IMG/VR virus record: IMGVR_UViG_2596583600_000002
Coordinates: 14,752 to 78,751 of that record
Direction: 5' to 3' (one strand)
Length of the DNA: 64,000 nucleotides
Source: a virus
Lineage: Duplodnaviria; Caudoviricetes
Below, in pieces: positions 1,760 through 49,201 of this stretch (the stretch's first letter is position 1; each line of letters begins with the position of its first letter). The notes beneath the pieces were generated by a model, which did not search any database, was not told where the DNA came from, and saw only the letters and a program-made list of their open reading frames with translations. The translations under genes were made by a program, and so were the position numbers.

Positions 1760-3573
1760 GCGAACCCCCGGCGGCGCTGGGCCGGGGCGGGCGACGGTGC
1801 GCCGAAATCGGCGGCAATCATTTTCTCCGCCCGATATTCGGACGTGGTGGCATAGAGGCGCGCCCGACGAAGGGCTTCCGGATCGACCGTTTCGCCGCGC
1901 TCGGCCGCGAAGATGAGCGCGTCGGCTTCCGCCATCTTCTCGGCGGGCGTTCTCGTGGCGCGGGAAGGTGCCGTGGCCGTCCGGGCCAGCGCCTCTTCCA
2001 GCCGCGCCTGATCCGGCACCGAAGGCGATGGCGCGGTGGCGATGCTGTCCATGGCGGGCGTGGATGCGGGGCGCGATGGCATCGGCAGATGAGCCAGCTT
2101 GCCCGCCCGCTCCGCCTCGTCCCGCAGCACGGTGTCCATGGCCTTCTCGACGGAGAAGGATGCCTTTTTCTTGCGAAGCTCGACGCGCTGGGCGTTGATG
2201 AGGTTGGCCATTTCGCGGCGGGCGGCGAGTGCCATTTCCCGCTGGGAGAAGCCCGCGCGCTCGACGTTCACGGCGGTGTCGATATATTCGCCCGCTTCGT
2301 CAAAGACGTAGAGCGCGCCAAGGTCGCCCTCGTCCCAGCGCAGCATGACCTGTTTGCCCATGAACGGAACCAGCGTGTCGGCCCAATAGCGGCCATTCTT
2401 CCACCGAACGCCGCGCTTGGTCACCATGGACGGGCCGATCACCGCGCTGAAGGCGATCTTGAGGATGCTTTCAGGCGGGGCGGAGCGCGCCGGTTCGGGG
2501 GAGCGCTGCCATTTTTCCATCGGCGGCATGCCGATCATGCTGTGCCTGCGCTGGTGATAGGTGCCGTCTACCCACGCATCCAGAATGCGTTGCAGCTCGG
2601 CGCTGTCGATCCCGGCCTCTATGACGGCCCGGCCCTTCTCCTTCTTCGCACGGGCGCGAAGTTGCTGCGCCTGCGCGACGTTATGACCAAGGAAGCCCTT
2701 GAGCATGGAGGCGCGCTCGCGGTTGAACGTGCCGAACACCCGCTCGATATGCGGCTTGTCCTCCGGGTGGCCGGGGAGGCAGGGGTCCAGTTTGATGCCG
2801 ACCGCGTCCAGCGACGCGATGATGGACGCGTTGATGAAGCCGGAGCCGTGATCGACCTTGAGGATCGCAGGCATCGCCCCCCATGCCAGCATGGTTGTCA
2901 CCAGCATCTGGCGCACGGACTGGGCGCTTTCGCTTTCCACCACCATGAACCGGGCGCGGCGCGACCAGCGGTCGATGATGCCGAGGATGGCCTTGCGGCC
3001 GTCGGTGCACATCACGTCCGCCTTGGTCGTGTCGATCTCCCACATTTCGTGGGCGTAGGAGACGGTCGCATCCATGCGGCCGAGCGCCGGGCGATACATG
3101 GACTTGAATTTGTCCGGATCGCGTTCTGCCGTGAGCAGGACTTTATGTTCTTTCTCGACGCGACGCATGTAGCGCTTCAGCGTTGGGAGGGACGGAAGAT
3201 TTGCGAACTCGGCTTGCAAAAGTTCCATGACGCGCGTGGATGCATGCTTGTGGTCGGCGAGGATGACCAGGACGGCGTCCGCGACGTCGGGGTGACGGTC
3301 GAACCAGTCGCCCTTGGGGCGGCCGACGGAACGGGTGACGGAAAGGTTGGCGGGCGCAGTCCCGTCGCGGAGTCCATCCTGAGCGGATTTGGGCAGGTGC
3401 AATATGCTGAAGAAGCGAGCCTCGCCCCCACGCACCACCCGTGTCTCATATGCCCAGCCTTCAAGGTCGGCGCGGATCAGGACGCCCCTTTTCGTGGTCG
3501 GAAGACCGGGCAGGCGGAGGTCGGCGATTTCCTGCGCGCTCAGATATGCGGCTGGCCCCCCGATGACCGTCAT
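1756..3573 (-). CDS. MuA-like DDE transposase
   Basis: N-terminal Mu HTH (LPGLPTTKRGV...W...GG), WEIDTT, KVDHGSGF, KPHIERVFGT, Mu C-terminal domain. Confidence 0.95.
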   Translation of the reverse strand: MTVIGGPAAYLSAQEIADLRLPGLPTTKRGVLIRADLEGWAYETRVVRGGEARFFSILHLPKSAQDGLRDGTAPANLSVTRSVGRPKGDWFDRHPDVADAVLVILADHKHASTRVMELLQAEFANLPSLPTLKRYMRRVEKEHKVLLTAERDPDKFKSMYRPALGRMDATVSYAHEMWEIDTTKADVMCTDGRKAILGIIDRWSRRARFMVVESESAQSVRQMLVTTMLAWGAMPAILKVDHGSGFINASIIASLDAVGIKLDPCLPGHPEDKPHIERVFGTFNRERASMLKGFLGHNVAQAQQLRARAKKEKGRAVIEAGIDSAELQRILDAWVDGTYHQRRHSMIGMPPMEKWQRSPEPARSAPPESILKIAFSAVIGPSMVTKRGVRWKNGRYWADTLVPFMGKQVMLRWDEGDLGALYVFDEAGEYIDTAVNVERAGFSQREMALAARREMANLINAQRVELRKKKASFSVEKAMDTVLRDEAERAGKLAHLPMPSRPASTPAMDSIATAPSPSVPDQARLEEALARTATAPSRATRTPAEKMAEADALIFAAERGETVDPEALRRARLYATTSEYRAEKMIAADFGAPSPAPAQRRRGFA

Positions 3574-44774: not shown

Positions 44775-45002
44775 ATGGCTGACGAAACAGACTGGAACGC
44801 GCTCAGGCAGCGTTGTGCGGACAATGCAACCGAACTGGTTCTGCGCGTCGAGACGATGGACGGTGAATATCGCTTCTCGCTCGCGGCTGTGGATCGTGAC
44901 GGCAAGATCATGTGGGACAATCGGGCCAACGATGAGGGCCATGCGCCGCAGCATATCGTCACGCAGCTTGTCACGTCTGCGCTGGAAAGGTGGTGGGTGT
45001 AA
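44775..45002 (+). CDS. hypothetical protein
   Basis: fills the terL-portal gap exactly. Confidence 0.55.
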   Translation: MADETDWNALRQRCADNATELVLRVETMDGEYRFSLAAVDRDGKIMWDNRANDEGHAPQHIVTQLVTSALERWWV

Positions 45003-47008
45003 TGGCTGACGTTATCGAACCCGCCCGCGCGCCTGATGAAGCGCAGCCCACCGGCCCGGAGGTGGATCAGGAGATATTCCCGCGCCTCAAGGAATGGACG
45101 AAATCGTCCCTCGACCACCTGTCCGAATGGCGCAAGGAGGCGGAGGCCGCGCAGGAGTTCTATGCGGGGCACCAGTGGAGCGATGATGAAAAGCGGCTCT
45201 TTGAGGATGATGGCCGGATCGCGCCCATCTTCAACCTGACCGCCGTCAACATCGATGTGGTGTGCGGCCTTGAGGTCAATAACCGTCAGGACGTGAAATA
45301 TCTGCCGCGCACGGAAGGTGATGTTCAGGTCAATGAGCTTCTGTCCTCGGCCGCCATGTGGGTGCGCGATCAGGCGCAGGCGGAGGATGAGGAAAGCAAT
45401 GCGTTCAGGGACGCGGTGATAACCGGCCTTGGCGTCACGGAGACCCGCACCGCCAACCGCCTGATATCCGTTGATCGCCGCGATCCGACCGAATGCTTCT
45501 ATGACAAGTCATCGAGCAAGACCAACCTTGTAGATCGGCGCTTTGGCGGTCGCGTGATCATGATGGACACAGACGAGGCGGTCGCGTTCTTCGGTGATCG
45601 TTACACTGCCTTCGAGATCAACGCGAAGTGGGCGTCGTTCGGGCTGAACCAGTCGAAAAAGGGTGAGGAGCGCCTTGACTATCCGACCGAGCAGATGGGG
45701 CCGACCGACAATAGCGACACGATCCCCAAGAAGGTCTGCGTCGTGGAAATCGAATGGTTCGATTGGGTTGGGACGGAGAAGGTCTATTATCAGGCGTTCC
45801 TTGGCGCGTCGTCCATCCTGGAGCAGAACCCGCTCAAGGAATGGGCCTATAACTGGATCACCGGCAAATATGACGCGAAGAAGCGCCGCTGGTACGGCCT
45901 GATCCGGGCGTTCAAAGACCCGCAGAAGTTCATCAATAAGATGATTTCGGTCGGTACGCATATCCTCGCGAGCAACGCCAAGGGTGGCCTGCTTTACGAG
46001 CGCGGCGTGTTTGTCGATCAGCGGGCAGCGGAACGTGACTGGTCGAACCCGCAGAAGAATGTGGAGGTCGCGGAAGGCGCGCTTGCCTCTGGTCGCATCC
46101 AGCCGCGCACCGCCCCCGCCTTCCCCGCCGCGATTTCGCAGCTTCTGGACTTCGCGCTGGCGATCTTCAATCGCGTGACGGGTATCAACGCGGAAATCCT
46201 CGGCACGACCGACCGCGACCAGCCCGCCAGCCTTGAGGCGCAGCGCAGGCAGTCGGCGGTCACGATCCTCGCCACGCTGTTCGACAGCAAGCGCCGCTAT
46301 CACAAGGAGCAGGGTAAGACGCTGCTGCAACTGATGAAGGGCCTGCCGCCTGAAACGCTGGTGCGCATCACGGTGGATGAGCCGCCGCAGATGCCAATGC
46401 CGCCAGTGCCTCCGGGGACGCCTCCTGATCAGCAGATCGCGATGATGGAGCAATATGCGCAGGCGATGGGCCAGCAACAGCAGCAGGCCCAGCAGGAGCG
46501 TTATGTGCGGCTGGCGCTGATCCAGCAGGCGTTCGCGGACGACACGATAGAGTTTGACGTGATCGTGGACGAAGCGCCGTCCAGCCCGAACCAGCAGCAG
46601 GAGGTCATCGCCAAGATCGCGATGATGGCGCAGCACGGGATGCAGTTGCCGCCACAGGCGCAGGCCATCGTGGTCAAGAGCATCGGCCTTCCCGCCACCA
46701 TCGCCGACGAGATCGCACAGGCCATGACGGGTTCCGATCCGCAGGTCGAGCAGCTTCAACAGCAATTGCAGCAGGGCGCGCAGATTCTCCAGCAGGCGCA
46801 GGCGGAGAATGAGCAGCTAAAGACCGATCGGTCGATTGATCAGCAGAAAGCCCAGACCGACCAGTTCAAGGCCCAGACCGACCGCATGAAGGCGCAGGCC
46901 GACATTGTGGCGCAAACAGGCGGCGTCCCTGTCCTCGACTATCTCGCGGCGCTCGAATCCAAGGTGGACCAGATCGGTTCCGCCGTCCTCCACATGCAAC
47001 AACCCTGA
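45002..47008 (+). CDS. P22-like portal protein
   Basis: FYAGHQW, GLIRAFKDPQ..IN, EFDVIVDEAPSSPNQ; Gln-rich barrel. Confidence 0.88.
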   Translation: MADVIEPARAPDEAQPTGPEVDQEIFPRLKEWTKSSLDHLSEWRKEAEAAQEFYAGHQWSDDEKRLFEDDGRIAPIFNLTAVNIDVVCGLEVNNRQDVKYLPRTEGDVQVNELLSSAAMWVRDQAQAEDEESNAFRDAVITGLGVTETRTANRLISVDRRDPTECFYDKSSSKTNLVDRRFGGRVIMMDTDEAVAFFGDRYTAFEINAKWASFGLNQSKKGEERLDYPTEQMGPTDNSDTIPKKVCVVEIEWFDWVGTEKVYYQAFLGASSILEQNPLKEWAYNWITGKYDAKKRRWYGLIRAFKDPQKFINKMISVGTHILASNAKGGLLYERGVFVDQRAAERDWSNPQKNVEVAEGALASGRIQPRTAPAFPAAISQLLDFALAIFNRVTGINAEILGTTDRDQPASLEAQRRQSAVTILATLFDSKRRYHKEQGKTLLQLMKGLPPETLVRITVDEPPQMPMPPVPPGTPPDQQIAMMEQYAQAMGQQQQQAQQERYVRLALIQQAFADDTIEFDVIVDEAPSSPNQQQEVIAKIAMMAQHGMQLPPQAQAIVVKSIGLPATIADEIAQAMTGSDPQVEQLQQQLQQGAQILQQAQAENEQLKTDRSIDQQKAQTDQFKAQTDRMKAQADIVAQTGGVPVLDYLAALESKVDQIGSAVLHMQQP

Positions 47009-47025
47009 CCAGACAGGAGAATATC

Positions 47026-47880
47026 ATGAACAACGAAGAACTGATGCCGATGGACCAGATGGAGGGGGCAGAACATACGCCCGCGTCTGAGACGGTCCAT
47101 GATCCCGCGCCGCAGAGTGAGCGCGCCCGCGATGAATCCGGGCGGTTCGCGCCCAAGGATGGCGAGGGGCCGCGCGGCGCGCCCAATGACGAGATTGCCC
47201 GCCGCCGCTACGCGCAGGAGCGGGACGAGGCGCGCAAGGATGCAGAGGAAGCGCGGGCGGCTCACGCGGCCCTCCAGAAGCGCCTTGATGACATGGCGAC
47301 ACTGGCGAAGGGCGACGATCCCGCCGCGCCCAAGGAGCCTGTAGACCCGCTGCAACCTGTTCTGGAGAAGTTGGAGACGTTCGAAAAGCGCTTCTCCGAT
47401 CAGGACGAGGCCAAGCAGGCGGAGGAAACGCACCGTCAGGTTCTGGCCTATTCCGATCAGGACGAGGCGAAGTTCCGGGAGAAGGCCCCGGATTTCCAGC
47501 AGGCCGCCGAGCATTATATCCTCAGCCGCATGAACGAAATGAAGGTGCTGGGTGTCGATCAGCAGCGCGCGGAGGCGCTTCTGGCGCAAGAGGCGAACCA
47601 GTTGCTTTACCGCTGCGCGCAGGAAGGCCGGTCAGCGGCGGAATCCCTTTATGCGATGGCGCAGGCCCGTGGCTATGTGTCGGGCGCAGCAGGCCAGCGC
47701 CCTGCCCCCGCCAGTCCGCAGCCGCAGAACTTTGGCGGTCGCTCGCTTGGTTCCGGTCAGGGGCCAGCAGGCGGCGCGGTCACGGCGGCGCAGATCGCAG
47801 CGATGAGCGAGGACGACTATATGGCCTTCCGCTCCACGCCAGAAGGAAAGCGGGCCATTTCGCGGGCCATGGGGGCCTGA
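47026..47880 (+). CDS. scaffolding protein
   Basis: RDESGRFA, coiled coil; lies between portal and capsid. Confidence 0.75.
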   Translation: MNNEELMPMDQMEGAEHTPASETVHDPAPQSERARDESGRFAPKDGEGPRGAPNDEIARRRYAQERDEARKDAEEARAAHAALQKRLDDMATLAKGDDPAAPKEPVDPLQPVLEKLETFEKRFSDQDEAKQAEETHRQVLAYSDQDEAKFREKAPDFQQAAEHYILSRMNEMKVLGVDQQRAEALLAQEANQLLYRCAQEGRSAAESLYAMAQARGYVSGAAGQRPAPASPQPQNFGGRSLGSGQGPAGGAVTAAQIAAMSEDDYMAFRSTPEGKRAISRAMGA

Positions 47881-47916
47881 CTATTGCCTTTCGCGAAAGA
47901 ATGAATCATGATTGTT

Positions 47917-48112
47917 GAGGGCTGGGACTATTCCGGCCCTCACGCCCACAAGGCGAAGGCGCGGACGGCCTGAACGGTCCCTCGGCATCCCCGACCGGAG
48001 AGGGGAAGGCGCGGACTGCCTCAAGTGTCCCTCGCACGCTCCCGGCGAATGGGGGTTCGCACCAGCCAAGCGAAGCGGCTGACCGAACTCAACCCCATTC
48101 GGGAGCCATCCC
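47917..48112 (+). ncRNA. candidate structured cis-regulatory RNA leader of the capsid gene
   Basis: hairpin, five H-type pseudoknot-like units, and an alternative SD-occluding stem. Confidence 0.55.
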
Positions 48113-49201
48113 ATGTCATACACTGAATTTCCATCGGGCCACCCGCTCAGCCCGACCATCTGGGAGCGGGAACTTTACGCCGAAGCGATCCAGCAGACCT
48201 ATGTCTGGTCCTTCATGGGCAGCAGCAACAATTCGCTGCTGGTCCGCAAGGATGATTTCGCGACCAAGGCGGGTGACAAGCTCATTCTGGGCCTCCGCAC
48301 CCAACTTACCGGGCGCGGGACCACGGGCGACGACACGTTGCACGGCAATGAGGAATCGCTGGTCACCCAGAATGATCAGTTCGTGATCAACCAGCTTCGC
48401 CATGCTGTCATCTCCAAGGGTCGCATGTCCGAACAGCGCGTCATGTTCAACATGCGCACCGAAGCGAAGGAAGGTCTGACCGACTGGTTCGCCAACCGTT
48501 TCGATACATGGTTCTTCAACCAGATCGGCGGCGCGACCTATCAGACGGACACGGCCTATACCGGCTTCAACTCTGTCGCGGCGGTCGATGCGAACCATAT
48601 CCTGCGTCCGAACACCAAGACCACCGATGAATCGCTGACCACGGGCGATGAATTGAACCTCACCCAGATCGACCGGCTGGTCGCGCGCCTTCGTCAGGGG
48701 TCGTTCGCCTCGACCGGCGTGATGCCGATCCGTCCGATCAAGATCAAGGGCGGCAATTACTATGTCCTGTTCGTCCACCCCAATCAGGTGGTGGGCCTTC
48801 GGTCGCAAACGTCGAACGCACAGTGGGCCGATTTGCAGCGCGCCCATATTCAGGGTGGCTTGACGGATATTCCGCTCATCACGGGCGGCGATTTCGTCGG
48901 GATCTACAACGGCGTGGTCATTCACCAGTCGGAGAAGGTGCCGATGGGCGTCAACTCCACTTCGGGCGCGGCTGTCACCAATGCCCGACGCGCGGTCCTG
49001 TGCGGCGCTCAGGCGGCCATGTTCGGCATCGGTGGCGACACGCCGGACGACAACAAGAAGTTCAAGTGGATCGAAGAGCGTTTTGACTATGAGAACCAGC
49101 TTGGCGTCTCTGGCTACACCATCGCCGGGTTGAAGGCGTCGGCGTTCAACAGCGCCCGCTTCGGCACCTTCATCCTTCCCACTTACGCACCGCTGGTCTG
49201 A
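48113..49201 (+). CDS. major capsid protein (N4-gp56/DUF4043-like)
   Basis: GD..L.GNEESL...INQLRHAV, YVLFVHPNQ, GIYNGVVIH, RAVLCGAQA. Confidence 0.9.
   Translation: MSYTEFPSGHPLSPTIWERELYAEAIQQTYVWSFMGSSNNSLLVRKDDFATKAGDKLILGLRTQLTGRGTTGDDTLHGNEESLVTQNDQFVINQLRHAVISKGRMSEQRVMFNMRTEAKEGLTDWFANRFDTWFFNQIGGATYQTDTAYTGFNSVAAVDANHILRPNTKTTDESLTTGDELNLTQIDRLVARLRQGSFASTGVMPIRPIKIKGGNYYVLFVHPNQVVGLRSQTSNAQWADLQRAHIQGGLTDIPLITGGDFVGIYNGVVIHQSEKVPMGVNSTSGAAVTNARRAVLCGAQAAMFGIGGDTPDDNKKFKWIEERFDYENQLGVSGYTIAGLKASAFNSARFGTFILPTYAPLV

Follow-up and report, generated by a model that had tools for sequence, protein, structure and literature searches.

A conserved, folded leader RNA before a prophage major capsid gene, with a candidate role as a bistable translational control element

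Outside a few model phages, little is known of how tailed phages draw a very high and well-timed capsid output from a polycistronic late mRNA, and a long gap between two prophage late genes raises this question at a single locus. The window analysed here is a stretch of 64,000 nucleotides, and the region of interest is a late-gene block read from the + strand of a prophage inside a 4.84-Mb bacterial genome. In this block, a P22-like portal gene (44990-47008, +; PF16510, 1.3e-65) is followed by an ORF of 284 aa taken from the ORF list (47026-47880, +), which is scaffold-like only by its position between portal and capsid and matched no Pfam or PHROG family. Then comes the major capsid gene, encoding 362 aa (48113-49201, +; PF13252, 3.6e-59; phrog_334 major head protein, 5.2e-77), so that the element singled out in an earlier sequence-only reading does stand in front of a capsid gene, as that reading had it. 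The 284-aa ORF and the capsid gene are 232 nt apart (47881-48112); the other neighbouring genes are spaced by 18, 10 or 2 nt, or overlap. A second sizeable gap of about 215 nt (44775-44989) lies between a large-terminase-sized ORF and the first possible portal start.

What, then, is the 232-nt gap for? A coding role was rejected, as the two ORFs that it contains, of 56 aa (+) and 92 aa (-), matched nothing in a family search and the module-sized insertions and deletions of relatives are not multiples of three. The terminator scan returned no terminator-like site on the + strand of 47881-48112, and an intrinsic terminator or attenuator was likewise rejected, the G+C-rich hairpin of the gap having no U-tract. 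This hairpin has 10-nt arms (47916-47942, +), was detected both as inverted repeat I1 and by folding, and has strong but non-homologous G+C-rich counterparts at the same place in relatives, which suggests that all of them serve a structural purpose, for instance in processing or in protecting the end of the transcript. Weak promoter-like hexamers of low confidence, TTGCCT-N17-CATGAT (47884-47912, +), stand just past the upstream stop codon. They agree with the sigma-70 consensus at 8 of 12 positions and went unreported in a stricter scan, and hexamers that score at least 7/12 are present in 5 of 15 leaders. If this promoter were used, transcription would start near 47919 and the 47916-47942 hairpin would therefore sit at the 5' end of the transcript.

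Downstream of that hairpin, five tandem units with the layout of H-type pseudoknots had been proposed, in which a first stem (S1) pairs an upstream strand with the loop of a local hairpin (S2). All of them lie exactly where they were placed (47957-48081), every stem being complementary as described, and the proposed sizes also hold, since each unit measures 24-25 nt with an L1 of 2 nt, an L2 of 0-2 nt and an L3 of 2-5 nt. A small hairpin, CGCC-CACAA-GGCG (47943-47955, +; local fold and direct repeat D1), precedes them and makes up, with unit 1, the first copy of a 50-nt repeat. Unit 1 (47957-47980, +) is a duplicate of the unit 3 module found in the window alone, as only the window has two such modules. 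Unit 2 (47982-48006, +; first noted as 47983-48006) is a covarying hairpin, UCCCC/GGGGA with the loop GACCGGAGA, and has UCGG/CCGG as its candidate S1. Unit 3 (48007-48030, +), of the form AGGC..GGAC..GCCU..GUCC, is an optional module present in 7 of 19 distinct leaders. Unit 4 (48032-48056, +) is the candidate switch module, with the S1 strand UCGC (48032-48035), an arm GCUCCC complementary to the Shine-Dalgarno sequence (anti-SD arm, 48038-48043), the loop GGCGAAU and an SD-mimic arm GGGGGU (48051-48056). Unit 5 (48057-48081, +), finally, is a covarying hairpin, CAGCC/GGCUG with the loop AAGCGAAGC, predicted to form the tip of a long alternative helix.

The rarity of this arrangement was measured by a blind search for H-type cores (S1 of 4 bp, S2 of 4 bp, short loops, non-overlapping units) against 1000 dinucleotide shuffles. 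Five non-overlapping units were recovered in 47957-48081, compared with 1.47 +/- 0.80 on average in shuffles, none of which reached five (0/1000); over the whole intergenic region, 11 of 1000 did so. With a G+C content of 67%, chance alone would give one or two such units. The five are not independent, because unit 3 repeats unit 1 (34 nt, 85% identical, spacing 50) and units 4 and 5 resemble each other (18 nt in common at 72%). Between units 1 and 3 the stems are kept, as the sequence-only reading had observed, and all differences among the three copies of the unit 1/3 type fall within the proposed loops. Tandem Repeats Finder reported no array in the region, and a tandem repeat array in that sense was rejected. 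A looser pattern built on the loop motif occurs 33 times in 128 kb, both strands counted, and three abutting copies of it exist only in the leader.

Is the gap maintained by selection on an RNA? Comparison with relatives identifies it as the 5' leader RNA of the prophage major capsid mRNA, conserved, folded and read from the + strand, which would act in cis. Close relatives of the capsid protein number 16 in viral contigs (83-89% amino acid identity), with more among the metagenome matches listed. Cultured phages all fall below 60% capsid identity, the best being a Paracoccus phage at 41%, and the 401 genomes of the host's order hold distant capsids only. The covariance model R1 matches the leader in 21 of the 22 close-clade sources, the sole miss (L043) having just 34 nt of upstream sequence, and gives 0 significant matches upstream of capsid genes in 21 distant sources. 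A total of 19 distinct leader versions were distinguished, and the 15 stretches returned by a leader pattern scan were all on contigs already known. The leader remains joined to the capsid gene even when other ORFs are inserted upstream. The junction between scaffold-like gene and capsid gene is an insertion hot spot, at which the leader stays with the capsid gene: HNH endonuclease genes lie there in cultured Paracoccus and Rhizobium phages (L109, 2708-3286; L110, 2798-3373) and extra ORFs in two metagenomic relatives (L004 and L010, upstream of position 3001).

Leaders of relatives carry 3-4 units, and a second module of the unit 1/3 type exists only in the window. The repeated module was rightly read as an RNA element, which lies on the + strand, whereas the number of five is specific to the window and unit 1 is a local duplicate. 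The seven leaders with a unit 3 module are scattered on the capsid tree; they comprise the window clade, the L009 group and L066, and of the two loop variants known the window holds both in tandem. Elsewhere in the host genome no second copy of the leader was found. The unit 1/3 core was rejected as a genome-wide repeat, its 117+117 matches comparing with 124+128 for a reversed-pattern control. A trans-acting antisense partner was also rejected, the 18-nt perfect complement to 48070-48087 within a 445-aa ORF (G000 C57, 208834-208851; L094, 1501-1518) having an E value of 0.07 and being judged a chance match. The unit 5 motif occurs in at least 120 stretches of viral contigs, and among the new loci screened (L111-L188) a single one formed the hairpin, in an unrelated context. 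A match in Rfam would have removed the novelty of the element; the search of Rfam 15 gave nothing at the gathering threshold, and with E values up to 10 returned only mir-1538 (16.4 bits against 78) and P15 (13.5 against 70), both with E above 4 and both outside the array. The portions of the literature consulted held nothing on such a leader.

The best supported feature of the leader is its set of local hairpins. Strong covariation of the hairpins of units 2, 4 and 5 is well supported by the comparison of relatives, and these hairpins may be taken as solid. On alignment A2, 92.5% of the hairpin cells are paired and six pairs show two-sided changes, compared with 2.7 +/- 0.9 in shuffles, none of which reached six (0/500). 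In the local stem of unit 4 every cell is paired (100%) and two-sided changes affect 3 of 6 pairs; pairing in unit 5 is likewise 100%, with two-sided changes at 2-3 pairs; and in unit 2, on a model-fitted alignment, 96.9% of cells are paired and such changes are seen at 4 of 4 pairs. For unit 2 alone, the MAFFT alignment had its structural register off and was left out of the counts. The stem of unit 3 is 96.8% paired and never varies, the differences between copies being confined to loops. RNAalifold recovered the same three hairpins of units 2, 4 and 5. Intermediates in the stems include G-U and never A-C, from which it follows that the folding molecule is the + strand RNA.

If hairpins are all that the leader holds, the capsid message could be processed or stabilised by a plain hairpin array having neither functional pseudoknots nor switching. 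RNase III would then cut the long helix, or RNase E or RNase J would be stopped at the 5' hairpins, so that the capsid message would outlast the portal and scaffold message and be translated more. This is the rival that survives best, and it is nevertheless unlikely on our assessment. It draws on the feature with the firmest evidence, and the strong non-homologous G+C-rich hairpin placed before the array in the window and in relatives would suit it. The fate of this explanation depends on what is made of the pairings beyond the local hairpins, namely a helix hiding the ribosome-binding site and the S1 stems.

The SD of the capsid gene is GGGAG (48101-48105), 7 nt before the ATG at 48113. Unit 4 had been proposed to pair alternatively with 48091-48106 and thereby to hide it; the two segments are complementary, and the pairing is used in the minimum-energy fold. 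In this closed helix, whose 3' strand spans 48084-48106 (+), CGAAC (48084-48088) pairs with GUUCG (48055-48059), the middle part CCCCAUUC (48093-48100, +) with the loop and 3' arm of unit 4, and the SD part GGGAGC (48101-48106, +) with the anti-SD arm of unit 4. The fold of 47881-48130 that includes this pairing has a predicted energy of -104.2 kcal/mol, compared with -90.0 +/- 5.0 for shuffles (z = -2.84; 2 of 200 shuffles as good).

The presence of this alternative long helix in relatives has moderate support from the predicted folds. Each of the 13 lineages has, at minimum energy, its real SD paired to an anti-SD arm from an upstream hairpin; in L003, the exception, the partner is unit 2, which hides the SD in about 22 bp of helix. 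The SD bases are nearly all paired in 10 of the 13. In the other three they are partly open, the unpaired probability reaching 0.98 in L066 and 0.61 in L058, and being 0.35 at the last SD base of the window. Among 14 rows, the pair between the unit 4 loop purine and its downstream partner is A-U in 3 and G-C in 9, and the change from A-U to G-C took place at least at two places on the capsid tree. Considered in a fixed register, on an alignment that had itself been fitted to the closed helix, this helix has 70-86% of its cells paired and shows two-sided changes at three pairs, and it is less well conserved than the local hairpins. The array-SD duplex has a better energy than 95% of shuffles in 9 of 13 lineages and is not significant in the other 4. 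Forced opening of SD and AUG would cost 6.1-16.6 kcal/mol across lineages. Under a uniform constraint, the capsid start of the window requires 10.8 kcal/mol, compared with 8.4 +/- 2.7 at 21 other gene starts in the window (maximum 15.9). The predicted cost of opening the ribosome-binding site is ordinary for this GC-rich prophage, and the predicted occlusion does not go beyond that of ordinary genes.

Does the competing fold matter at all? The most telling observation comes from leaders unrelated in sequence. Three relatives with capsids 46-48% identical to that of the window (L024, about 2855-2994; L067, about 1360-1500; L229, around 1174-1195 on the reverse strand) carry a second leader family; R1 matched neither the L024 nor the L067 leader, and L229 was compared by eye only. 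The layout is shared, with tandem modules of about 25 nt of which the last contains an anti-SD arm and an SD-mimic arm. This last module has the form CCGU-ag-GCCUC-ACGG-ac-GGGGC, and the 5' part of its loop matches an upstream 4-mer. In the global fold of all three, the SD is paired to the anti-SD arm, while the loop and 3' arm find a complement downstream, around a tip hairpin. The loop strand of S1 shares two bases with the beginning of the competing helix, as it does in the window. The tip hairpin is wholly different among the three leaders and is not conserved. The duplex test gave z values of -2.3, -0.4 and -3.4, one of the three not being significant. Recurrence of this layout in an unrelated family lends independent support and is, as far as such comparison reaches, the strongest argument that both folds would matter. 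It is also what hairpins acting purely in processing leave unexplained.

Are the units true pseudoknots? The evidence on the S1 stems is divided. In unit 4, UCGC pairs with the loop sequence GCGR at 4 of 4 positions in 15 of 16 rows, and in L002 UCGG faces CCGG, a compensatory change on both sides. In unit 2, S1 is CGG/CCG in the window, L001 and L058 and CGC/GCG in 10 other rows, all 13 agreeing with their loop type; the CGG/CCG group counts as one event because it forms a single clade on the capsid tree. This makes two compensatory S1 events in total, one in unit 4 of L002 and one in unit 2 of the window clade, and these too are left unexplained by a processing array. L002 further retains AGG...CCU around a wholly different stem. 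In unit 5, S1 is fully paired (4/4) in 8 of 16 rows, has lost its first pair in 7 and counts as absent in the remaining one, L003 (2 of 4 pairs). In two more distant relatives with 45-46% capsid identity, L070 (about -77 from the capsid start) and L068 (about -85), single modules show the same topology and loop motif (GCGA-AG and GCG-UAGA) on entirely different stems.

Formal tests give S1 no support, a point in favour of the processing array. On A2, 79.3% of S1 cells are paired, compared with 79.0 +/- 1.0 in shuffles (251 of 500 reach the observed value), and there are 2 two-sided changes against 2.3 expected. A flank-shuffle test of 15 hairpins likewise yielded no S1 excess (3.2 bp against a null of 2.8, with 3.3 in the downstream control). 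Counted as 4-bp stems, S1 beats the leader's own shuffles in 4 of 13 leaders (at most 4 of 300 shuffles reaching the observed count), and as 3-bp stems in 12 of 13 (at most 11 of 300), but the latter shuffles also destroy hairpins. Covariation, which the earlier reading had named as a way to check its units, thus bears out the hairpins of units 2, 4 and 5, whereas the S1 stems show no excess over shuffles. The loop lengths (L1 of 2, L2 of 0-2 and L3 of 2-5 nt) look feasible to borderline by rules of thumb. It may also be that S1 and S2 form in place of one another. On these comparisons, pseudoknots are unproven, and the chance that the units would form them is put slightly below an even one.

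How might such a leader work? In the open state, local hairpins would form in the order of transcription, the anti-SD arm GCUCCC of unit 4 would pair with the SD-like arm GGGGGU, and the real SD would be left free. Pairing of UCGC with the loop sequence GCGA (4 bp) would then close unit 4 into an H-type pseudoknot and mask those loop bases from which the competing helix begins. In the closed state, the anti-SD arm would turn to GGGAGC, the loop and 3' arm of unit 4 to CCCCAUUC, and GUUCG to CGAAC, giving a long interrupted helix capped by unit 5 in which the ribosome-binding site would be buried. Both states would have to form in vivo; what the comparisons show is conservation of the leader, covariation of its hairpins, and recurrence and partial covariation of the closed helix. 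The SD switch is plausible, and a predicted function of the leader as a bistable translational control element of the capsid gene is, in our judgement, about evenly balanced between right and wrong. As regards what shifts the balance, folding during transcription, in which the pseudoknot would serve as a kinetic lock, would be the most likely trigger, and a phage protein or cleavage by RNase III would rank behind it; a trigger driven by structure is favoured because the two leader families share architecture and not sequence.

This bistable reading meets a biological tension, as a site closed by default sits badly with the very high expression that a capsid gene needs. Processing by RNase III or protection by 5' hairpins would reconcile a buried SD with high capsid output, and the closed helix, an interrupted one of about 24 base pairs, would by the usual size rule be large enough for RNase III to act on. 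A bolder generalisation of the bistable reading would make the leader a member of a hitherto unrecognised class of translational regulators, carried by phages with this capsid type and built from tandem mini-pseudoknots, each locking an anti-SD arm and masking the toehold of an SD-hiding helix, with the array being read by an assembly protein (free capsid or scaffold) or serving as a folding timer. Capsid synthesis would thereby be coupled to the state of infection, and leaders unrelated in sequence would either have retained this logic or have arrived at it anew; taken as a whole, this is improbable, and a little more so than the processing array.

Binding of a phage protein by the modules comes next among the rivals and is less probable again. 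Unassembled capsid protein, scaffold or a late regulator would bind the modules cooperatively and tune capsid translation to assembly. A module period of 24-25 nt and loops better conserved than stems (GCG-N-AG type) would fit such sites, as would the same loop motif on different stems in L068 and L070, at 45-46% capsid identity. Autoregulation at the mRNA level is known for phage structural and DNA-binding genes, such as T4 gene 32 and the P22 scaffold gene, which lends this explanation precedent. However, the second family has the architecture without the loop sequences and so favours a mechanism based on structure, and no candidate protein was found. The weakest rival, very improbable, is a DNA-level element (promoter or operator repeats, or a packaging site) or a non-functional G+C-rich spacer left by duplication and insertions at a recombination hot spot. 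In its favour, the DNA palindrome TCGC-N9-GCGA recurs with a 25-bp spacing, weak promoter-like hexamers lie nearby, cultured relatives have HNH genes at this junction, and one or two pseudoknot-like units arise by chance. Against it, pairing is kept through G-U and never A-C, as befits a + strand RNA, stems differ between units and covary, unlike half-sites for one DNA-binding protein, five units appear in 0 of 1000 shuffles, and conservation of the leader contrasts with the turnover of what lies upstream of it.

The bistable leader, if it operates as predicted, bears on the post-transcriptional control of capsid synthesis, for which leaders with competing folds, found in at least two unrelated sequence families before homologous capsid genes, are candidates. 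The leader is moreover a candidate new RNA family for databases, and the cultured relatives infecting Paracoccus and Rhizobium, which also have long structured leaders, are possible experimental systems.

Several known systems resemble parts of this leader. In phage lambda, the cIII mRNA has two folds that exclude each other. The ribosome-binding site is occluded in one of them, and a host factor, RNase III, shifts the balance. The likeness lies in alternative structures in the leader and start region of a phage mRNA, whereas cIII has neither tandem modules nor pseudoknot candidates nor an SD-mimic arm and is a lysogeny gene rather than a capsid gene. In the leader of phage T4 gene 32, a single H-type pseudoknot nucleates the cooperative binding of gp32 on an unstructured operator; here again an H-type pseudoknot of a phage 5' leader takes part in translational control, but no anti-SD/SD competition is involved. 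The maturation-gene leader of MS2 hides its SD at equilibrium by long-distance pairing, so that translation occurs only before that fold is reached. MS2 is, however, an RNA phage with a cloverleaf instead of an array of modules, and kinetic control of the present leader is something that we infer.

Among riboswitches, preQ1-I/II, SAM-II and guanidine-III are compact pseudoknots of 25-45 nt next to the SD and decide its accessibility. In these, a ligand draws the SD into the pseudoknot, whereas the pseudoknot here would hold the anti-SD and no ligand is indicated; none of the Rfam families matched the present leader, even at E values up to 10. Tandem small H-type pseudoknots are known from the upstream pseudoknot domain of tobamoviruses, which has this arrangement in common with the leader but belongs to the 3' untranslated region of a eukaryotic virus, a plant RNA virus, and has an unrelated role. 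ROSE elements and other SD-hiding RNA thermometers of Alphaproteobacteria are also multi-hairpin 5' leaders in which the last helix pairs with the SD, but no ROSE model matched and the closed helix predicted here would be far too stable for a switch that works by melting. Placed beside these systems, the leader RNA is new and uncatalogued, and it belongs to a general kind that is already known.
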